A stretch of 64,000 bases of DNA from a virus. This document shows positions 51,371 to 58,724 of the stretch, one piece after another; position 1 is the stretch's first letter; the number at the start of each line of letters is the position of its first letter. Both the position numbers and the translations under genes were made by a program. The stretch lies in IMG/VR virus record IMGVR_UViG_3300035670_000018, positions 64,001-128,000 of that record. One strand, given 5' to 3'. The notes under the pieces are model-generated. The model was not told the origin of the DNA and searched no databases. It saw nothing but the letters and a program-made list of their open reading frames with translations.

Positions 51371-51447
51371 GCCCCCTTAGCCCAGCGGTAGGAGGCACCG
51401 GACTTAAAATCCGTACAGGGACAGTTCGAATCTGTCAGGGGGTACCA
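51371..51447 (+). tRNA. tRNA-Leu(TAA), short variable loop
   Basis: Cloverleaf, CT-TAA-AA loop, CCA. Confidence 0.85.
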
Positions 51448-51452
51448 AATTT

Positions 51453-51528
51453 GCATCTGTAGCACAGCGGTTAGTGCTATCGGCTCATAACCGATTGGTC
51501 CTTGGTTCGAATCCAAGCGGATGCACCA
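51453..51528 (+). tRNA. tRNA(CAT), probably Ile2
   Basis: ATCGG-CTCATAA-CCGAT; Ile2-like body. Confidence 0.9.
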
Positions 51529-51533
51529 AATAA

Positions 51534-51623
51534 CGGAGTGAGACTAAGAGTCAGAGAGGACTTATAAACCTTTTGCAGCCGATTACTGCCTTTGAGGTGG
51601 AGCGTTACCACCCACTCCGACCA
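51534..51623 (+). tRNA. atypical tRNA-like RNA with TAT anticodon (Ile)
   Basis: CGGAGTG/CACTCCG-ACCA; CT-TAT-AA; T-stem GGTGG/CCACC with loop AGCGTTA. Confidence 0.55.
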
Positions 51624-51628
51624 ATATT

Positions 51629-51705
51629 GCCCTCGTAGCCCAACTGGCAGAGGCAGCAGATTCAAATCCTGCTCAGTGTAAGTTCGACTCTTACCGAGGG
51701 CACCA
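51629..51705 (+). tRNA. tRNA-Leu(CAA), short variable loop
   Basis: Leu-type D arm, TT-CAA-AT loop, CCA. Confidence 0.8.
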
Positions 51706-51714
51706 AAAAAAAAG

Positions 51715-51755
51715 TTGACAAAAACATAAAATCCAGCTAGGATGTTGTATAAATA
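51715..51755 (+). promoter_or_regulatory. tandem sigma70 and late promoters
   Basis: TTGACA-17-TAGGAT then TATAAATA (51748-51755). Confidence 0.8.
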
Positions 51756-51779
51756 GAATACAGTTTAAGAAAGACGGAA

Positions 51780-51866
51780 ATGAAACCCATTCTACCTCCA
51801 TTTACAATTAATCAAGAAACATGCCAGCCATCATGGGCAGGTGTGATGAGGGGTTCTATGTATTAA
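51780..51866 (+). CDS. putative attenuator leader peptide MKPILPPFTINQETCQPSWAGVMRGSMY
   Basis: 28-codon ORF between promoters and terminator; its 3' end is complementary to the terminator arm. Confidence 0.65.
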   Translation: MKPILPPFTINQETCQPSWAGVMRGSMY

Positions 51867-51890
51867 GTCTTAGTACAGACTTAGTTTCTT

Positions 51891-51929
51891 AGAACCCCGA
51901 AGCCAAAAGTTTCGGGGTTCTTCGTTTTT
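51891..51929 (+). terminator. intrinsic terminator (attenuator)
   Basis: AGAACCCCGAAGC-CAAAA-GTTTCGGGGTTCT-TCGTTTTT. Confidence 0.85.
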
Positions 51930-51932
51930 ATA

Positions 51933-52072
51933 GTTGCGTCCAGTGCATAGCAGATATGCGAAAAAAGAATAAGAAAAGACTTGAAATTGGCTGCGACAAG
52001 CACTATATTAGATATGTAAGAGAGAAAAGAGTTTCCCAGCCGCGCGGGACAAGATGCGGTCGCTGTTTAACA
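51933..52072 (+). promoter_or_regulatory. TATGC triple box, TTGAAA-17-TATATT promoter and boxA-like site
   Basis: CGCTGTTTAACA at 52061-52072 vs rrn boxA TGCTCTTTAACA. Confidence 0.6.
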
Positions 52073-52164
52073 TTGTTAAGTTCCTATGAGTTACCCTTGC
52101 TCACTCAAGGGCGCACTGAGTAGCGAAATATCCAGTGAGGGACTGTGACTCAGCACAGCCTCAC

Positions 52165-52289
52165 ATTCTATCTCTTCAGATATGCACCGGGCATTGTAGC
52201 TACTGCCTAGTGTGGCACAGTCGCGCTGCTTCGGTGGCGTTCAAGATGAACTGTTCGATTCAGTTGGTGCATATCTGAAGTGATAGAAT
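52165..52289 (+). ncRNA. tRNA-like RNA closed by a 24-bp stem
   Basis: ATTCTATCTCTTCAGATATGCACC / GGTGCATATCTGAAGTGATAGAAT; T-arm AACTG-TTCGATT-CAGTT. Confidence 0.65.
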
Positions 52290-52293
52290 ACAT

Positions 52294-52370
52294 TCCTCTC
52301 AAGCCAACTAGGTGGAGGCAACTGACTGTTAATCAGTGTACGACAGGTTCGAATCCTGTGGGGGGAGCCA
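52294..52370 (+). tRNA. tRNA-Asn(GTT)
   Basis: ACTGA-CTGTTAA-TCAGT, GCCA. Confidence 0.92.
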
Positions 52371-52376
52371 ATTCAT

Positions 52377-52463
52377 GGACCAGTCGCCTAGTGGCTATGG
52401 CAGCAGACTCTTAATCTGTCGTGAGAAATCACATCGTGGGTTCGAGTCCCACTTGGTCCTCCA
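52377..52463 (+). tRNA. tRNA-Lys(CTT) with long variable arm
   Basis: GCAGA-CTCTTAA-TCTGT; GTGA-GAAA-TCAC. Confidence 0.85.
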
Positions 52464-52468
52464 ATCAT

Positions 52469-52542
52469 GGCCTATTAGTGAATGGATATCACACCGCTCT
52501 GTCTAAGCGGAGAAGCGAGTTTGAGCCTCGCATAGGTCGCCA
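52469..52542 (+). tRNA. tRNA-Asp(GTC)
   Basis: CCGCT-CTGTCTA-AGCGG, GCCA. Confidence 0.88.
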
Positions 52543-52613
52543 TTTAGTACGCCTGTCCCGCTTTGGGAAGTTGGGTAGGGTTGACGGCACCCTCGCAGTA
52601 CGAAAGCCGTTAT

Positions 52614-52691
52614 CTGAGTGTACGAGAGTCTGGTTACATCCCATAGATTTGGAATCTATGAACGCAGGTTCGAATCCTGCCACTCAGACCA
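52614..52691 (+). tRNA. tRNA-Pro(TGG)
   Basis: ATAGA-TTTGGAA-TCTAT, C1-G72, ACCA. Confidence 0.85.
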
Positions 52692-52696
52692 ATTAT

Positions 52697-52770
52697 ATCA
52701 GTGTAGTGTAACGGTAGCACGGCAGCCTCCAAAACTGCTTGTCAGGGTTCGAATCCTTGCACTGGTGCCA
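52697..52770 (+). tRNA. tRNA-Trp(CCA)
   Basis: CT-CCA-AA loop, GCCA. Confidence 0.92.
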
Positions 52771-52773
52771 GTC

Positions 52774-52884
52774 AGAAAGAGCGGTAGTCGGAGTGCGAAT
52801 CCGATGAGAACATGCCTGTGATCGCACACAGGCATTAAGTATCCTCACCATAGACTTCGGTCAACATAGAGGAACGCTCTTTCT
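52774..52884 (+). ncRNA. unassigned four-way-junction RNA
   Basis: AGAAAGAGCG/CGCTCTTTCT enclosing three hairpins. Confidence 0.55.
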
Positions 52885-52939
52885 ACTTGACTTTACGTGA
52901 TGCCTCGTCTATAATAAGACAACAATCAACGAGGTAACT

Positions 52940-53155
52940 ATGGCAAAGATGACGATTAAGAAAGTGATGGAATTACAAGATCATTTCATCAAAGCTGGTA
53001 TTATGAAAGACCCTAAGTCTTATACCGCAGATGAATTGAAGTATCTTAATCCTGCTATTCCATCTGACTTCATTGATGATTATGTTGATGTTCGTGATGG
53101 TAAGAAGAAAGAAAGCGACTGGCAGCGTATTCCGCTGAAGATCGAAGATTTGTAA
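52940..53155 (+). CDS. hypothetical protein
   Basis: GAGG SD; TTGACT-17-TATAAT at 52887. Confidence 0.7.
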   Translation: MAKMTIKKVMELQDHFIKAGIMKDPKSYTADELKYLNPAIPSDFIDDYVDVRDGKKKESDWQRIPLKIEDL

Positions 53156-53161
53156 TACAAT

Positions 53162-53236
53162 GGGCTTGTAGTATAATGGGTATTATCTCCCGCTTGCACC
53201 GGGAAGAACAGGGTTCGATTCCCTGCTTGTCCACCA
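53162..53236 (+). tRNA. tRNA-Ala(TGC)
   Basis: G3-U70, CT-TGC-AC loop. Confidence 0.88.
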
Positions 53237-53244
53237 AGTTTAAC

Positions 53245-53318
53245 GCCTCTATAGTTCAATGGCAGAACGCCTGTTTTGTAATCAGGATATCAGGGTTCGA
53301 TTCCTTGTCGAGGCACCA
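53245..53318 (+). tRNA. tRNA-Thr(TGT)
   Basis: Cloverleaf, TT-TGT-AA loop. Confidence 0.9.
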
Positions 53319-53320
53319 GT

Positions 53321-53439
53321 TTAGCGTTGTAGGAGCAGAAGTGACCTTGTTGGGATGGTCTGCTGTATGCGGCTCACAGGCGAGTTGAGGGGTTTGATCA
53401 CCCCAAGTCTGGCGAGGGTTCAATTCCCTCCAACGCTAA
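53321..53439 (+). ncRNA. tRNA-like RNA without CCA or clear anticodon arm
   Basis: TTAGCGTTG/CAACGCTAA, T-arm GAGGG-TTCAATT-CCCTC. Confidence 0.55.
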
Positions 53440-53445
53440 TCTAAT

Positions 53446-53516
53446 TTGATCTGGCTACGTAGCAGCAATGTGCGTCATGAATGTCAGACAGTCAACCAAA
53501 TAACTGTGCGGTTGAC
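53446..53516 (+). ncRNA. pseudoknot RNA motif, copy A
   Basis: Covaries with copy B (53613-53698). Confidence 0.6.
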
Positions 53517-53524
53517 ACCAGTTT

Positions 53525-53610
53525 GGGTGAGCGGCAACGACGGTGAGTTGCGGCGGACTGTAAATCCCCTGTCTATGACTTAGAAGGTTCGAATCCTTTC
53601 TCACCCACCA
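53525..53610 (+). tRNA. tRNA-Tyr(GTA)
   Basis: CT-GTA-AA loop, long variable arm, ACCA. Confidence 0.9.
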
Positions 53611-53612
53611 AA

Positions 53613-53698
53613 TTGATTTAGCTACTCACACAGTATGGTTACGCCATATCTTAGAGTCACGAATGCTAAACAACCAGACTTAATACTGTGCTGTCTGG
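53613..53698 (+). ncRNA. pseudoknot RNA motif, copy B
   Basis: TTTAGC/GCTAAA, ACTC/GAGT, CCAGAC/GTCTGG, CACAGTA/TACTGTG. Confidence 0.6.
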
Positions 53699-53708
53699 AT
53701 TATTTTAT

Positions 53709-53794
53709 ACTACCTTATCCAAGTGGTTGAAGGAAGGCGGCCGATAACCGTCTGGCGAAAGCCCGCGTTTGTTCGAATCAAACAGGTAGTACCA
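53709..53794 (+). tRNA. tRNA-Ile(GAT) with C33 and long variable arm
   Basis: GGCGG-CCGATAA-CCGTC; GGC-GAAA-GCC. Confidence 0.8.
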
Positions 53795-53872
53795 TTTCCT
53801 GTGCTTGCAATCTCTCAGTTAAAAGCTGTTGCAAGATTAAGTGTTATGTCTAATATGACATAGACACAGGAT

Positions 53873-54157
53873 CTATTCTCTTGAAGGATAAAGACCTTCA
53901 ACCACCATATGTGGTACAAGTTCGTCATCATGCCATTCGCGTCTGACTTTCTTGCCATAGTCTGGTCCAGAATCAACGAATGGTCTTAAGTCTGGTAGTG
54001 CGAAAGTGTGAATACCATCGCCACCCCAACGGGTGCCCAGTAGAGAGAACAAAGGTTCATGATGTTGAATTTCTAATATCTGCCCGCGACATACCACAGT
54101 GTCTCTTGTGTTCCAAGTAAAAGGCAGATAAACAACTTGACTAATATAAGCTTCCAT
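53873..54157 (-). CDS. phage tail-collar domain protein
   Basis: CRGQIL..LFSLLGTRWGGDG..FALPDLR, GLYPSR; minus-strand CTAAATA and GGAG SD. Confidence 0.8.
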   Translation of the reverse strand: MEAYISQVVYLPFTWNTRDTVVCRGQILEIQHHEPLFSLLGTRWGGDGIHTFALPDLRPFVDSGPDYGKKVRREWHDDELVPHMVVEGLYPSRE

Positions 54158-54197
54158 GGTATACTCCATTATATGAGTTGACATGGTATTTAGTTAT

Positions 54198-54271
54198 TGG
54201 GAGATCATCTAAAGGTAGGATAGCGGTCTTTGAAACCGCCGATCTTGGTTCGATTCCAAGTCTCCCAGCCA
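54198..54271 (+). tRNA. tRNA-Gln(TTG)
   Basis: U1-A72, GCGGT-CTTTGAA-ACCGC. Confidence 0.92.
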
Positions 54272-54323
54272 ATTCGTGCTTGCATAGCATATAGTCAATA
54301 GATGTAGCCGCACTACAATAGAC

Positions 54324-54407
54324 GGACTGGTTACCGTAGTGGCGAACGGCGCTGACTTTTAATCAGCTATGCAAACACCGTGGGTTCGAGTCCCACCCAG
54401 TCCTCCA
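54324..54407 (+). tRNA. tRNA-Lys(TTT) with enlarged variable region
   Basis: GCTGA-CTTTTAA-TCAGC, TCCA. Confidence 0.85.
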
Positions 54408-54412
54408 ATTAT

Positions 54413-54487
54413 GGCGCATTAGTTTAGTGGTCAGAATACTGGGCTTTCAATCCGGGGAGAAGGGTTCAATTCCCTTATGCGCTGCCA
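54413..54487 (+). tRNA. tRNA-Glu(TTC)
   Basis: CT-TTC-AA loop, GCCA. Confidence 0.9.
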
Positions 54488-54492
54488 AATAT

Positions 54493-54570
54493 TGCGGGAT
54501 AGAGCAGTCAGGTCAGCTTGCTAGGTTCATATCCTAGAGGTCGCAGGTTCGAATCCTGCTCCCGCTTCCA
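54493..54570 (+). tRNA. tRNA-Met(CAT), initiator-like
   Basis: 1:72 mismatch, fMet-like D arm GAGC..GCTT. Confidence 0.85.
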
Positions 54571-54571
54571 T

Positions 54572-54646
54572 GCTGCATTAGTCTAGTGGTTAAGACGCAG
54601 GTCTGTGAAACCTGTTACGGCGGTTCGATTCCTCCATGCAGTACCA
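54572..54646 (+). tRNA. tRNA-His(GTG), no G-1, A73
   Basis: CAGGT-CTGTGAA-ACCTG; preceded by T, ends ACCA. Confidence 0.9.
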
Positions 54647-54651
54647 TTTAT

Positions 54652-54725
54652 TGCCCGGTCGTCTAACGGTAGGACGCCAGATTCTGACTCTGGCTATCGT
54701 GGTTCGAATCCATGCTGGGCAGCCA
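54652..54725 (+). tRNA. tRNA-Gln(CTG)
   Basis: CCAGA-TTCTGAC-TCTGG. Confidence 0.92.
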
Positions 54726-54729
54726 ATAT

Positions 54730-54804
54730 GGGGTAATGGTGAAATGGGAACACCGTGGTCTGCAAAACCATTATGAGTAGGTTCGATTCCTACTTACCCC
54801 TCCA
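54730..54804 (+). tRNA. tRNA-Cys(GCA)
   Basis: CT-GCA-AA loop, U73. Confidence 0.92.
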
Positions 54805-54810
54805 AACTAT

Positions 54811-54904
54811 GCATCCGTATCCCCCTTGGCTACGAACCAAGAGTAAGGTAACTGGAGATGGTCAGAGATGACTAATGCAGGTTCGAATCCTGTCGGATGC
54901 TCCA
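54811..54904 (+). tRNA. atypical tRNA-Arg(ACG), D-arm absent/rearranged
   Basis: GCATCCG/CGGATGC, CTTGG-CTACGAA-CCAAG, GCAGG-TTCGAAT-CCTGT, TCCA. Confidence 0.7.
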
Positions 54905-54920
54905 CTAAAGGAAAACAACA

Positions 54921-55283
54921 ATGAAACTATTAATAGCAGCCTTTGCTGCCCTATTTTTAATGACAGCACCCAGTAATGCTACAACAATGGTAGCATCATG
55001 GTATGATTGTGTTAAGCCTGGTGAATGTAGTAAACATAAGATTACTGCAAGCGGGCAAAAATTCAATCCAAATGCTTTAACAGCAGCACACAAGACATTG
55101 CCTTTCGGCACAAGACTGAGAGTTACACACAAAGGAAGATCGGTAATAGTAGTAATTAATGATAGGGGCCCGTTCATTAGAGGCAGACATTTAGACCTAT
55201 CAAGAGCAGCAGCAAGAAAGATTGGCTGCGGTGGAGTTTGCACAGTCAAGGTTGAAATCTTAGGAAAGAAGAAGAAAAGATAG
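54921..55283 (+). CDS. RlpA-like (DPBB) lytic transglycosylase with signal peptide
   Basis: ASWY, TASG, TAAHKTLPFGT, INDRGPF, DLSRAAA. Confidence 0.9.
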   Translation: MKLLIAAFAALFLMTAPSNATTMVASWYDCVKPGECSKHKITASGQKFNPNALTAAHKTLPFGTRLRVTHKGRSVIVVINDRGPFIRGRHLDLSRAAARKIGCGGVCTVKVEILGKKKKR

Positions 55284-55444
55284 ACTTGACAACATGTGGG
55301 ATTTAGTCTAATATATACATCGTGGCGGTAAGTAATGCGTTCCGTCATCCCGCAGCTAGAGGTTTGTGAGTGGACTGTTGACTGGAAACTCTCATTAACA
55401 CAATAGTGGAGGCCGTAACCACTTTAAGAAATCGGAGCGAAATT

Positions 55445-55532
55445 GGATAGGTGGCAGAGTGGTCTATCGCATCGGTCTTGAAAACCGAAGTACCTTCGGG
55501 TACCGTAGGTTCGAATCCTACCCTATCCGCCA
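55445..55532 (+). tRNA. tRNA-Ser(TGA)
   Basis: TCGGT-CTTGAAA-ACCGA, long variable arm. Confidence 0.95.
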
Positions 55533-55549
55533 AACAAGAGGAAGATACA

Positions 55550-55696
55550 ATGAGTAAAGATTGTGGTTGTGGAAGAAGTCCGACTGGTAAGTGTATCGGT
55601 TGGCATGGGTTGACAAATGAACAATACTCTGCTAAACTACAAGAATACGAAAAGAAGAACTTGACGGAATCAGCTCCTCAGTTGCTTCGTGATTGA
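55550..55696 (+). CDS. small CDGSH-like Fe-S/Zn protein
   Basis: CGCGRSPTGKCIGWH; GAGG SD. Confidence 0.6.
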   Translation: MSKDCGCGRSPTGKCIGWHGLTNEQYSAKLQEYEKKNLTESAPQLLRD

Positions 55697-55702
55697 ATAA
55701 AC

Positions 55703-55778
55703 GCTGCCTTGGTATAGCTGGTGCGTACATGCGCCTGAAGAGCGTGGGGACTCTGTTCGATTCAGAGAGGCAGCACCA
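55703..55778 (+). tRNA. tRNA-Phe(GAA)
   Basis: TGCGC-CTGAAGA-GCGTG. Confidence 0.9.
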
Positions 55779-55792
55779 TTTAGAGAGTTAAT

Positions 55793-55948
55793 ATGAAACT
55801 TAAAACTTGGTGGAAACATGCTGTGTTCCATTATGACATTCTAAAGGTGGATGATACTTGTGTTGATTACCTTAAGATGGTAACATTCTGGCATCCCGAA
55901 TACAAAGAGTATCAGACAACAGTAAGTCATGTTTCAAACATAGAATAA
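55793..55948 (+). CDS. hypothetical protein (51 aa)
   Basis: Fills the gap between tRNA elements. Confidence 0.45.
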   Translation: MKLKTWWKHAVFHYDILKVDDTCVDYLKMVTFWHPEYKEYQTTVSHVSNIE

Positions 55949-55949
55949 T

Positions 55950-55988
55950 GCGTCTTGGGAGGTGATGGTCACCTCACCGCTCTCTGAA
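55950..55988 (+). pseudogene. possible 5' half of a tRNA truncated by endonuclease insertion
   Basis: GCGTCTT, D-arm GAGG..TGG..CCTC, CCGCT-CTCTGAA, then late promoter. Confidence 0.45.
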
Positions 55989-56003
55989 ATACTAAATAGT
56001 AGT

Positions 56004-56576
56004 ATGAGATACACCATTTACAAAACGACTAATACAGTCAACGGCAAATACTACATTGGTAAACATCAAACCATTGATCCAATGGATAACTATCTGGGTT
56101 CAGGTAAGGCTATTGCTAATGCCATAAAACTACACGGTAAAGATTCTTTTGTGAAAGAAGTTCTGTTTGATTTTGATACAGAAGAGGAAATGAACAGTAA
56201 AGAGCGTGAACTTATTACTGAAGATATCGTAAACGATCCGATGTCTTACAATTTAGGTGTCGGTGGAGAAGGCGGTCCTCACTTCAGTGGAAGAAAACAT
56301 ACAGACGAAACGCGAAAAAAACAGAAAAACGCAAATACAGGTCGTGTCTATGATTACGATAAGTATAGCGAAGAAAGAAAAAAGACCTTCTTTACTGAAG
56401 GCAATGAATACTGGAAGAAAAGAAAAAAGAACTTTCATACGGAAGAGAGCAAACAAAAGATTCGAGAAAAAAGGTTATTACAACCAACACCGAATTTAGG
56501 GCGCAAAATGTCTGAGGAACAAAAAGAAAAGATTCGTCAGACGCTTCTAAAGCGAAACAAGAATATGCCTGTGTAG
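56004..56576 (+). CDS. GIY-YIG homing endonuclease (SegB-like) with NUMOD3 repeats
   Basis: TIYKTTN..YYIGKH..YLGSG; KHTDETRKK. Confidence 0.9.
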   Translation: MRYTIYKTTNTVNGKYYIGKHQTIDPMDNYLGSGKAIANAIKLHGKDSFVKEVLFDFDTEEEMNSKERELITEDIVNDPMSYNLGVGGEGGPHFSGRKHTDETRKKQKNANTGRVYDYDKYSEERKKTFFTEGNEYWKKRKKNFHTEESKQKIREKRLLQPTPNLGRKMSEEQKEKIRQTLLKRNKNMPV

Positions 56577-56641
56577 TTCATTGATAGAACATGCGTCTCA
56601 TAAGCGCAATGTAGGTGGTTTGATTCCACCCACAGGCACCA
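56567..56641 (+). tRNA. tRNA-Met(CAT), elongator-like
   Basis: TGCG(T)-CTCATAA-(G)CGCA, ACCA; overlaps the endonuclease stop codon. Confidence 0.85.
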
Positions 56642-56653
56642 AATAAATAGAAT

Positions 56654-56856
56654 GCTAACTCCGACGGGAGTTGGCCGAGTGCAAGGAAATGACTGCTCAC
56701 CAGGAGCGGTTAACTTGGCTAGATGGTGTGGTGCCCGTGCGCGACTGACGAGAGTCAGAGGCGTATCGTCTCCGACCAAGAGAATCTAGGCTGACACGTG
56801 GCAGATACAAGGTATCTTGGTCGTGTCTTGTGGGTGTACCCCAGTCCCACCTCACC
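56654..56856 (+). ncRNA. unassigned ~200-nt structured RNA
   Basis: GC-rich, at least seven helices, preceded by ATAAATA. Confidence 0.6.
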
Positions 56857-56865
56857 TTATTAAAT

Positions 56866-56939
56866 GCGGGTTTGTTGTAGTGGTAGCGAACTACCTTGCC
56901 ATGGTAGAAGCGCGGGTTCGATTCCCGCATCCCGCTCCA
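56866..56939 (+). tRNA. tRNA-Gly(GCC)
   Basis: CTACC-TTGCCAT-GGTAG, U73. Confidence 0.9.
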
Positions 56940-56954
56940 ATCATAAATACCAAT

Positions 56955-57309
56955 ATGCTAACTATTCTATTTGTATTTTTGTTGTTGGGAACAGAAGTTC
57001 TTGCTTTCCTTATCATGATAGTGGTGTTAACATATGAAAAGATGTTTCCTAAAGAAGAACAGAAAAACAATATATTCTATGATGATAAGATGATAAATAT
57101 TGATGACCAATCAAGGTCAAACACGAGGTAAGAATATGTTGAACACAGTTGTTGTTTTGGTTCTTGTTGCTGTTGTACTATGGGTCGGTTGGACTCTTTG
57201 GCAGAACGGCTGGGATGTAAAGAAGGCAGGTGCTGCTCTTGTAGCTGCGGCCGCTGCTGCTTGGCTCTGGATATCAGATTCGATTACATCTCTAACCGCA
57301 GGCATGTAA
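56955..57309 (+). CDS. two small membrane proteins (56955-57131, 57136-57309)
   Basis: Hydrophobic helices; late-promoter motifs upstream. Confidence 0.5.
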
Positions 57310-57420
57310 TCTAGAAACCGCTCTTGGCCCGTAGCGGTATAGAAGTCTTCTGGGTAAGTCGTGCAAATGCTAATTCCAAATTATCAGGTTGCAGGACAAG
57401 CTAACGGGCTTCCAATTCAA

Positions 57421-57495
57421 GCTTCTTTCGCCAAATGGGAAGGCATCGGTTTTACACACCGACATGACAAGGTTCGATTCCTTGAAGAAGCACCA
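57421..57495 (+). tRNA. tRNA-Val(TAC)
   Basis: TCGGT-TTTACAC-ACCGA. Confidence 0.9.
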
Positions 57496-57500
57496 TTAAT

Positions 57501-57582
57501 GCGAGTATGGTGAAATGGCAGACACACTTGCCTTAGAAGCAAGCGCGAAAGCATGGGGGTTCAAGTCCCTCTACTCGCACCA
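57501..57582 (+). tRNA. tRNA-Leu(TAG)
   Basis: CT-TAG-AA loop, GC-GAAA-GC variable arm. Confidence 0.92.
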
Positions 57583-57588
57583 ATCACT

Positions 57589-57662
57589 GCCTCTATAGTT
57601 CAAAGGCAGAACACGGCTTTGGTAAAGCCGAAACACAGGATCGTTACCTGTTAGAGGCACCA
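57589..57662 (+). tRNA. tRNA-Thr(GGT), T-loop ATCGTTA
   Basis: CGGCT-TTGGTAA-AGCCG. Confidence 0.85.
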
Positions 57663-57677
57663 TTTAGGAACTTAACA

Positions 57678-58175
57678 ATGATCAGAAAGAATATGGATTT
57701 AGACGAAGTTCGTGCATTCATCCAAGCACAATCTCCCGAAACAAAGATTTATCTAGGTGGCGACTCTGAACGCTTTCAGTTGAATGGTGTATGGATGGCT
57801 GACTACATCAACGTTGTCGTTGTTCATAAGAACGGCAAGAACGGTTGTCGTGTGTTCGGTTCTGTTGTGCGTGAGCGTGACTATGACCAGCAGAAGGACA
57901 AGCCACGTATGCGTCTCATGAATGAAGTAATGAAGACTGCACAGCTTTACCTTGATCTGGAAGAAGCTATCGGTGAACGTGACTTTGAAATTCATCTGGA
58001 CATCAATCCTGACTTGAAACACGGCTCATCTTGTGTTATAAATGAAGCTGTTGGTTACATTCGTGGTATGTGTAATGTGGTACCGCTAGTGAAGCCAAAT
58101 GCTTGGGCAGCATCTTACTGTGCTGACAGGTACAAGGACGCTATTCAACATATTCCACAAGTGAAGGTAGGATAA
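57678..58175 (+). CDS. RNase H-like YkuK/DUF458 family protein
   Basis: IYLGGDS, RLMNEV, EIHLDIN, KPNAWAASYCAD. Confidence 0.8.
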   Translation: MIRKNMDLDEVRAFIQAQSPETKIYLGGDSERFQLNGVWMADYINVVVVHKNGKNGCRVFGSVVRERDYDQQKDKPRMRLMNEVMKTAQLYLDLEEAIGERDFEIHLDINPDLKHGSSCVINEAVGYIRGMCNVVPLVKPNAWAASYCADRYKDAIQHIPQVKVG

Positions 58176-58179
58176 AATT

Positions 58180-58629
58180 ATGACTAAGTTTTTTGTTATG
58201 TTGGCAGTGATGGCTGCTGCAATCTTTATGCTTGCTACTGGCACTAGAGCAGGAGTTGAACCTCTTGGTGAGCATGAAGTGATTATTAGGATTGACAAGT
58301 CCGATCAGAAGATGTACGTAGAAACGCCTACTGATTATTTTGAGTGGGATGTTTCTACTGGTCGTAAGGGTTATCGTACTCCTGTTGGCGTGTTTCAGCC
58401 CTATCTTTTGAGACCGATGCATTACTCAAGCAAGTATAATAACGCGCCGATGCCTCATTCAATTTTCTTTCATGGTGGTTATGCAATTCATGCGACAACA
58501 GAAGTAAAGAAGCTTGGTCAACCCGCATCACATGGATGTATTCGTCTTAGCCCTCAGAATGCTCGTTGGTTGTATCGCATCGTAAACGAGTACGGCAAGT
58601 ATAATACATATATAGAGATTACAGAATAA
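58180..58629 (+). CDS. L,D-transpeptidase (YkuD family) with signal peptide
   Basis: VSTG..TP, GYAIH..LGQPASHGCIRL. Confidence 0.9.
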   Translation: MTKFFVMLAVMAAAIFMLATGTRAGVEPLGEHEVIIRIDKSDQKMYVETPTDYFEWDVSTGRKGYRTPVGVFQPYLLRPMHYSSKYNNAPMPHSIFFHGGYAIHATTEVKKLGQPASHGCIRLSPQNARWLYRIVNEYGKYNTYIEITE

Positions 58630-58633
58630 TATA

Positions 58634-58724
58634 GGAAGGATGGCCGAGAGGCCGAAGGCACCTCACTGCTAACGAGGCGTACCCTAATCAGGTACCGTGG
58701 GTTCGAATCCCACTCCTTCCGCCA
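58634..58724 (+). tRNA. tRNA-Ser(GCT)
   Basis: CT-GCT-AA loop, long variable arm, GCCA. Confidence 0.95.

Follow-up and report, generated by a model that had tools for sequence, protein, structure and literature searches.

Two copies of a small RNA element in a phage tRNA array

We analyzed a 64,000-nucleotide (nt) stretch of viral DNA, referred to below as the window, that spans bases 64001-128000 of the 167,363-bp IMG/VR virus record IMGVR_UViG_3300035670_000018 and carries two copies, A and B, of a small structured RNA element within a large tRNA array (Table 1). T4-type replication proteins are encoded in the window (a family B DNA polymerase, a UvsX/RecA-like protein and a gp41-type helicase), and the nearest isolates according to the helicase (~61% identity) are the Methylophilales phage Melnitz and cyanomyoviruses. 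Locally, the gene order is tRNA-Thr(UGU), a tRNA-like RNA, copy A, tRNA-Tyr, copy B and tRNA-Ile. The 5' leader of tRNA-Tyr consists of copy A and its GUUU tail (53521-53524); copy B, a diverged duplicate of copy A, now stands before tRNA-Ile. Among the relatives and metagenome contigs searched, copy B is so far confined to the phage lineage of the window.

Table 1 Positions of the RNA element, its parts and associated features (window positions, except where a related locus is named by an L-number; P, paired helix; J, joining segment; R1 and R2, covariance models; ORF, open reading frame)
Feature	Position	Strand	Evidence or description
Copy A, 75 nt, short 'A-type'	53446..53520	+	Sequence; 110.5 bits against R1 (its own source model), 88.1 bits against R2
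Copy A, P1 5' strand	53447..53455	+	UG, bulged A at 53449, UCUGGC; pairs with 53483-53490
Copy A, P2 hairpin	53457..53475	+	ACGU/GCGU closing a variable 11-nt loop
Copy A, J2/1	53476..53482	+	CAUGAAU; 3' side (7 nt) of the internal loop between P1 and P2
Copy A, P1 3' strand	53483..53490	+	GUCAGA and CA
Copy A, P3 hairpin	53491..53516	+	GUCAACC, 12-nt loop AAAUAACUGUGC, GGUUGAC
Copy B, 90 nt, diverged duplicate between tRNA-Tyr and tRNA-Ile	53613..53702	+	R1, 37.4 bits, E 4e-7
Copy B, P2-loop segment	53629..53636	+	CACAGUAU, complementary to the P3-loop segment 53683-53690
Copy B, P3 hairpin	53674..53698	+	CCAGAC, 13-nt loop, GUCUGG
tRNA array, 27 same-strand tRNA genes, copies A and B embedded	51371..58724	+	ARAGORN, Rfam
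tRNA-like RNA, unannotated, directly 5' of copy A	53322..53438	+	Rfam tRNA, 17.5 bits, below threshold
tRNA-Tyr (GUA), long variable arm	53525..53610	+	ARAGORN; Rfam tRNA, 35 bits
tRNA-Ile (GAU), next gene 3' of copy B	53709..53794	+	ARAGORN
NUMOD3-motif protein ORF inside the tRNA array	55962-56576	+	
manA RNA (Rfam RF01745)	56657-56858	+	61.6 bits against a cutoff of 55.2
RNaseH-like protein ORF inside the tRNA array	57678-58175	+	PF04308, E 8e-17
Long form, related loci	L169:4558-4680, L102:5110-5227, L093, L100, L115, L120/L213, L123, L114		
Long form, differently ordered arrays	L208:4342-4424 (short variant), L210:9352-9460		
S4-like mini-ORF	L166:11107-11280, L176	- (L166)	PF01479, E 2e-12; PF22421, E 3e-10
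S4-like mini-ORF	L173, L095		As above
S4-like mini-ORF	L200:4044-4220	+	As above

Two diverged copies were described in an original prediction made from the letters alone, and both are indeed present, on the + strand. The scheme proposed for them, UUGA-P1-U-P2..P2'-CAYGAAU-P1'-CA-P3-..ACUGUGC-P3', proved correct, and all three of the stem pairs quoted in its support do pair. Closer definition changed two details: P1 is longer by a U-A and a G-C pair (UG/CA) around a bulged A, and P3 of copy B has 6 bp rather than 7, with a register one base off that of copy A.

We built one covariance model from copy A with the proposed structure (R1) and another from both copies (R2). Applied to the whole window on both strands with filters off, R1 found copy B (Table 1) but no third copy, the next match scoring 10.9 bits (E 1.4). 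The structural alignment of the two copies was taken from R1 because MAFFT misplaced the insertion in P2. It pairs 97% of pair cells (37/38), compared with 19-36% when the 3' partners are slid, and seven pairs are changed on both sides. Identity between the copies is 85% in the unpaired core (22/26) and 53% at paired positions (20/38). This contrast, with loops kept and stems free to vary, marks a structured RNA and would not be expected of a recent DNA repeat.

Homologues and covariation

Loci and contigs of related phages and metagenomes are denoted by L-numbers (for example, L164 and L208). We found 12 further distinct homologues, all in contigs of uncultured T4-like phages and always within a tRNA array, which brings the total to 14 distinct sequences; these score 59.6-107 bits with R2, a model into which both window copies went. 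Relatives fetched around the RNaseH-like ORF of the array have tRNA arrays, and R2 matches eight of them at 61-72 bits. Those fetched by the gp41 helicase (<=67% identity) mostly have no tRNA array near the gene and yielded no matches. A relaxed sequence pattern added further viral and metagenomic contigs, and a metagenome scan returned 24 loci, five of them real, including three new contigs (two distinct sequences). A strict pattern ending in ACTGTGC was set aside, having given only a chance match in the coding region of L003; relatives carry ACTGTGA. No member was found among isolated phages by blastn against 50,697 phage records, in which only tRNA-Tyr matched, or among bacteria and archaea in two pattern scans of 185,579 species genomes. 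The element measures 72-75 nt across the A-type members and 110 nt in L164. It is a new RNA family of narrow distribution, found only in contigs of uncultured T4-like phages.

An alignment of the 14 distinct sequences (A6; 19 base pairs) demonstrates a conserved, covarying fold. Overall, 98.5% of pair cells are paired, and compensatory (double) changes occur in 11 of the 19 pairs, including six of the seven in P3 and three in P1. Covariation as high as that observed arose in none of 500 shuffles, and slid controls paired at 19-36%. P1 comprises 8 bp with 99% of its cells paired. The proximal 4 bp of P2 are conserved and covary, and its distal part is hypervariable, consisting of 7-46 nt of unrelated sequence. 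RNAalifold independently predicts P1, P2 and P3, plus two invariant pairs inside the P3 loop. Because G-U pairs occur in P1, P2 and P3, the structure belongs to RNA of the + strand, which is also the tRNA strand.

Five segments are invariant in 14/14 sequences: UGAU, CUAC, GUCA.GAAUG, ACA and AAUA.CUGUG, the last being the core of the P3 loop. The family layout is accordingly a P1 helix with a bulged A, a P2 of variable length, a purine-rich joiner GUCAYGAAU(G) and a P3 with an 11- to 13-nt AAUA(A)CUGUG loop. The alignment thus bears out the prediction of a conserved, folded RNA in which stems covary around invariant unpaired residues, and the additional homologues that had been named as its test were found (12 distinct sequences).

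A further element of the original prediction, base pairing between the loops of P2 and P3, holds in one copy and fails as a general feature. In copy B, the loop-loop duplex has 8 bp (CACAGUAU/AUACUGUG), longer than claimed, with a free energy of -10.7 kcal/mol that none of 300 shuffles reached. Copy A can form only 4 bp (GCAG/CUGU), no better than shuffles. Pairing amounts to 4-5 bp in eight homologues (copy A and those with AGCAG-type loops), where 5-28% of shuffles equal it, and is absent in five of the 14 sequences (L172, L200, L164, L165 and L190). Because it is weak or absent outside copy B, this pseudoknot is not a feature of the family.

Comparison with known RNA families

We compared the element with the 4227 models of Rfam release 15. 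At gathering thresholds, only tRNAs and the manA RNA were reported in the window; at E<=10 over positions 53300-53720, neither copy was matched except by a chance hit of tmRNA_permuted (9.9 bits, E 7.7) to the first bases of copy A; and only tRNAs were found in the relatives L164, L169, L171 and L172. The statement that the element matches no known ribozyme or riboswitch was therefore borne out by the Infernal/Rfam check, with no family matching either copy.

Invariant unpaired nucleotides framed by covarying helices, along with the 8-bp loop-loop pairing possible in copy B, are what a self-cleaving ribozyme or a ligand-binding riboswitch could display, and a catalytic or ligand-binding RNA had been suggested on such grounds. 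That suggestion did not hold up, and we regard either function as very improbable. None of the self-cleaving ribozymes in Rfam (hammerhead, twister, twister-sister, pistol, hatchet, HDV-like and hairpin) and no riboswitch model matched at E<=10, and by inspection none of those ribozyme classes has the topology of the element, in which two hairpins lie side by side with a 1x7 internal loop. The pseudoknot is not conserved. No expression platform was recognized and no terminator lies in or after either copy, where the genes 3' are tRNAs. Most members have no downstream ORF; one is present only in L166, L173 and L200, where a short U run follows P3. In addition, the tRNA operon already has processing enzymes.

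The element shares with tRNAs (RF00005) its gene size (72-75 nt), its strand and a spacing of 2-6 nt to its neighbours; the succession of P1, a U and the 4-bp P2 recalls an acceptor stem, U8 and D arm; and other odd tRNA-like RNAs occur in the same array. It might thus be a degenerate or aberrant tRNA, or a tRNA pseudogene that has kept tRNA size and spacing, a notion to which we give almost no weight. Neither ARAGORN nor the Rfam tRNA model, even at E<=10, made a call on 53446-53520 or 53613-53702. The element has no cloverleaf, T arm, anticodon arm or conserved CCA, and its 3' tails vary (ACCA, AUCA, GCUU, ACUU and AUUA). Purifying selection on a fold that is not that of a tRNA, and the existence of a 100-120-nt long form (see below), also argue against a decaying pseudogene.

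Functional RNAs are also derived from the spacers of bacterial tRNA operons, an example being the E. coli 3'ETS-leuZ small RNA sponge. The likeness to the element lies in a by-product of a tRNA precursor that functions by base pairing; the difference is that such RNAs are short, weakly structured spacers of host operons.

What matters most is the setting, which the original prediction overlooked: the element is a unit the size of a tRNA that sits within a polycistronic tRNA array and is linked to tRNA-Tyr. On this basis, we place the element with the stable RNAs of phage tRNA clusters instead of with ribozymes or riboswitches: it is a non-tRNA gene that lies on the tRNA strand and abuts tRNA genes. 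The best-known representatives are RNAC and RNAD of T4 and the stable RNAs of T5, whose function is unknown (PMC3014915; PMC9697503). T4 RNAC (species 1) and RNAD (species 2), like the element, are small, lie on the tRNA strand within a tRNA cluster at 1-6 nt from their neighbours and are presumably released by the tRNA-processing machinery. RNAC differs in having a canonical T arm and an acceptor-like stem, both absent from the element, and the T4 RNAs follow tRNA-Arg, whereas the element family is tied to tRNA-Tyr. In T5, RNAI, RNAIII, RNA1, RNA2, RNA2H, RNAIV, RNA3 and RNAX are likewise stable RNAs interleaved with tRNA genes. Some abut a tRNA directly, as RNAIII does in front of tRNA-His, and RNAI and RNAIII form a neighbouring pair of the same size that recalls a duplication. 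The tRNA-Tyr of T5 has its own promoter ~100 nt upstream, not this element. With filters off, the family covariance model (R3) found nothing significant in the T4 tRNA region and, in the T5 tRNA region, a sole match on the opposite strand (12.7 bits, E 0.7); by this test, the element is not homologous to the RNAs of either phage.

Position in tRNA arrays and linkage to tRNA-Tyr

Every member lies inside a same-strand tRNA array. Most start 2-5 nt after the CCA of tRNA-Ala, tRNA-Thr or tRNA-Tyr; the exceptions are copy A, for which the distance to the preceding tRNA-like RNA is 7 nt, and, among the long forms, a few members with no assigned neighbour on the 5' side. The elements end 4-10 nt before the next tRNA. 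Because no promoter-like or terminator-like site lies inside them, they are most simply part of a polycistronic precursor; nor does a terminator follow copy A or copy B.

The element is linked to tRNA-Tyr. A-type or hybrid units directly abut this gene in the window, L167 and L164, and the long form does so in L093, L100, L102, L115, L120/L213 and L168-L175, in front of several tRNA-Tyr sequence types. (Several of the relatives' tRNA-Tyr genes were missed by ARAGORN and Rfam and were identified by the CUGUAAA motif or by eye.) In L210, the long form abuts an ARAGORN-called tRNA-Tyr within an array of different order, Asn-?-element-Tyr-Lys-Ala. Adjacency kept in differently ordered arrays, namely L210 and, with a motif-inferred tRNA-Tyr, L208, argues that the element moves together with tRNA-Tyr as a single module. 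At their 3' end, units carry CA(A)GUUU, a conserved tail that forms the native -7..-1 leader of tRNA-Tyr. Tandems of A-type, long form and tRNA-Tyr in L168-L175 look like leader duplications.

A long form of the element and an S4-like mini-ORF

The long form, of ~100-120 nt, is found directly 5' of tRNA-Tyr in the tRNA-Ala to tRNA-Ile spacers of relatives (Table 1). It shares the 5' UUGAUCUG P1 with the A-type. Its inner domain is a covarying hairpin capped by a conserved GYUUGA loop and accompanied by a GUCG..AAKU joiner, its terminal hairpin also covaries (GAGCC, GUACC, GCGCC, GCACC and GUGCC) around a loop RA..YGUGM, and its tail reads AGCA(A)GUUU(C). The two forms meet in L164, a hybrid in which P1, the joiner and P3 are of A-type and the insert in P2 matches the inner domain of the long form in L102 almost exactly; the L164 hybrid and the L102 long form align end to end. 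Judging from these sequences, the A-type is probably the long form minus the distal P2 domain.

In three lineages (L166/L176, L173/L095 and L200), a stand-alone ORF of 58-59 amino acids resembling S4 and the C terminus of tyrosyl-tRNA synthetase (TyrRS) lies between an A-type element and tRNA-Tyr. In addition to its Pfam matches (Table 1), it matches TyrRS in the PDB (E 3.5e-5). No such ORF is present in the genome of the window, and most members of the element family are likewise without one. Weaker relatives of the ORF were noted in L140, L147, L153-155 and L162-163. Just before the ORF in L166, L173 and L200, the post-P3 tail A(N)CA(A)GUUU is replaced by GCGCUUUU(U), and P3 there resembles an intrinsic terminator or attenuator immediately before the ribosome-binding site of the ORF.

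Interpretation of the element as a probable leader module of tRNA-Tyr

We consider it fairly probable that the element represents an undescribed family of small structured RNAs that forms a 5' leader module of phage tRNA-Tyr, with duplicates, in the tRNA operons of a clade of uncultured T4-like phages. It would be transcribed within the polycistronic tRNA precursor, from which RNase P would cut at tRNA-Tyr +1 and 3' processing just after the upstream CCA. Such cuts would yield a free RNA of 75-120 nt; by analogy with the stable RNAs of T4 and T5, the unit is probably released in this way and may be a discrete stable RNA. The invariance of the single-stranded joiner and P3 loop implies a sequence-specific partner, and these loops may form the contact surface for it, whether protein or RNA, and whether met in cis during maturation of tRNA-Tyr or in trans after release.

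Complements of the P3 loop occur at chance frequency in the phage's own genome (two 11/12 matches versus ~0.7 expected), and no conserved site complementary to it was found in ~2 Mb of related phage loci. Three candidate pairings were examined by eye and rejected, the partners not covarying: the leader GUGAG with the 3' acceptor strand of tRNA-Tyr, the long-form GCUUGA loop with the CAAGU tail, and a UAC 'specifier' with the GUA anticodon. Since neither a complementary site above chance nor a covarying pairing with tRNA-Tyr was found in these comparisons, the likeliest partner is a protein or a host RNA.

Several observations weigh against a leader module of tRNA-Tyr, or against the strength of the comparative evidence for it. 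Most of the covariation in P1 and P2 is contributed by copy B along with a few divergent sequences; core identity among the A-type orthologues is 75-100%, and this close relationship inflates the shuffle statistics. R3 detects the long form without statistical significance; its best match outside the A-type, to the L208 variant, assigns the helices identically and is not significant on its own (14.2 bits, E 0.33). The case for relating the short and long forms is therefore built on the alignment of the L164 hybrid, on motifs in common and on position. Since gene order is conserved elsewhere, synteny could account for most of the adjacency to tRNA-Tyr; only L210 and L208 argue otherwise, and in the latter, which also has a different array order, the tRNA-Tyr 3' of the element is inferred from its motif and not called by ARAGORN. 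Some A-type copies are not at tRNA-Tyr at all: they stand before tRNA-Thr in L165, before tRNA-Ile in L172 (like copy B) and before the small ORF in L166, L173 and L200. Finally, L084-L088, the closest relatives by the RNaseH-like protein (98% identity), lack the element although tRNA-Tyr is present, and the element is therefore dispensable.

A narrower account has the element act as a leader in cis only: its fold would tune the maturation or yield of tRNA-Tyr, through RNase P cleavage, precursor folding or protection from 5'-end-dependent decay, and it would be degraded after cleavage with no function in trans. Direct adjacency to tRNA-Tyr across several tRNA-Tyr types and in the differently ordered array of L210 fits this account, as does the conserved -7..-1 tail, and the supply of tRNA-Tyr is known to matter to phages, as in T5 facing retron-Eco7 (PMC11555353). 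We nevertheless think it unlikely. A generic protective hairpin would not require invariant single-stranded sequences of 7 nt and 11 nt, copies are also retained apart from tRNA-Tyr, before tRNA-Ile, tRNA-Thr or an ORF, and close relatives have a tRNA-Tyr without the element.

Another account rests on the mini-ORF. Threonyl-tRNA synthetase (ThrRS) and ribosomal protein S4 autoregulate through mRNA leaders that mimic their RNA ligands (the ThrRS operator and the alpha-operon pseudoknot, respectively), and in L166, L173 and L200, as well as in L176 and L095 of the same lineages, the element forms the 5' untranslated region of an S4/TyrRS-C-terminal-like mini-ORF next to tRNA-Tyr. The element might thus be a protein-binding mimic or decoy in tRNA-Tyr biology, acting as an operator or as an anti-defence sponge, with a TyrRS-type S4 domain, host TyrRS or a host nuclease attacking tRNA-Tyr as its target. 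The sequence CUGUGA within the P3 loop resembles the anticodon loop CUGUAAA of tRNA-Tyr, and depletion of tRNA-Tyr by retron-Eco7 is a known defence (PMC11555353). Against this, the S4-like ORF is absent from the genome of the window and from most members, both window copies included; the GUA triplet is not kept, being replaced by GUG in the A-type loop and CGUG in long-form loops; and the loop has 12 nt, not 7. Mimicry of tRNA-Tyr by the element is not demonstrable from sequence, and we judge this account quite improbable.

To return to the leader module of tRNA-Tyr, phage T5 overexpresses tRNA-Tyr from a strong promoter and thereby evades retron-Eco7 (PMC11555353). By analogy with this precedent, and considering the S4 mini-protein, a role centred on tRNA-Tyr is plausible for the element. 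More speculatively, and as something of a long shot, the element, tRNA-Tyr and, in some lineages, the S4 mini-protein might constitute a tRNA-Tyr 'care package', in which the leader RNA would serve as operator, chaperone or decoy, a specific ligand of some tRNA-Tyr-recognizing protein. Candidates for that protein would be host TyrRS, the S4 mini-protein and a tRNA-Tyr-depleting nuclease of a host defence. If true, this would reveal an RNA-based layer of the conflict between phage and host over tRNA-Tyr, and the first function for a 'stable RNA' of a phage tRNA cluster.

About five decades after small stable RNAs became known in the tRNA clusters of T4 and T5, no function has been assigned to any of them. 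The family described here offers a case that can be constrained by comparative data, with a covarying fold, invariant loops, a modular P2 domain open to loss or exchange and a physical link to one tRNA, over which phages and host defences are already known to compete. It provides a concrete RNA for processing, binding and anti-defence assays and would constitute a new family of the Rfam type.

Other features of the tRNA arrays

The tRNA-like RNA directly 5' of copy A combines an acceptor-like stem of 7 bp and a canonical T arm (GAGGGUUCAAUUCCCUC) with an insert of ~45 nt where the anticodon loop would be. ARAGORN did not call it, and its minimum free energy fold has z = -2.4. With its tRNA-like parts and large insert it is similar to T4 RNAC, and similar units were seen by eye in L088 and L100.

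At least three further conserved non-tRNA spacer RNAs, none with an Rfam match, occur in the arrays of relatives, in the tRNA-Tyr/tRNA-Ile spacer (for example, L169:4765-4888, L167, L164, L102 and L115). One of them, 'X' (~125 nt), occupies the spot of copy B. The others are 'Y' (~100 nt; L084, L085, L099 and L171) and 'Z' (~170 nt; L093, L100, L113 and L114). In L131, a different, internally duplicated element lies 5' of tRNA-Tyr. The 'spacers' of large phage tRNA arrays thus hold several conserved non-tRNA RNAs that current annotation misses.

Two ORFs lie inside the array of the window (Table 1). The NUMOD3-motif ORF probably encodes a homing endonuclease. The RNaseH-like protein is found at 67-98% identity within the arrays of at least 80 related contigs.

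Neither ARAGORN nor the tRNA model of Rfam recognized the divergent tRNA-Tyr genes (GUA, with a long variable arm and unusual T loops such as GGAUCGUAACC) of L084, L085, L088, L165, L168-L171 and L175 (for example, L169:4681-4764), as well as that at L208:4425-4510, and as a result these arrays seem to lack tRNA-Tyr. By blastn, similar tRNAs are present in phages of Rhodobacter, Erythrobacter and Cellulophaga.

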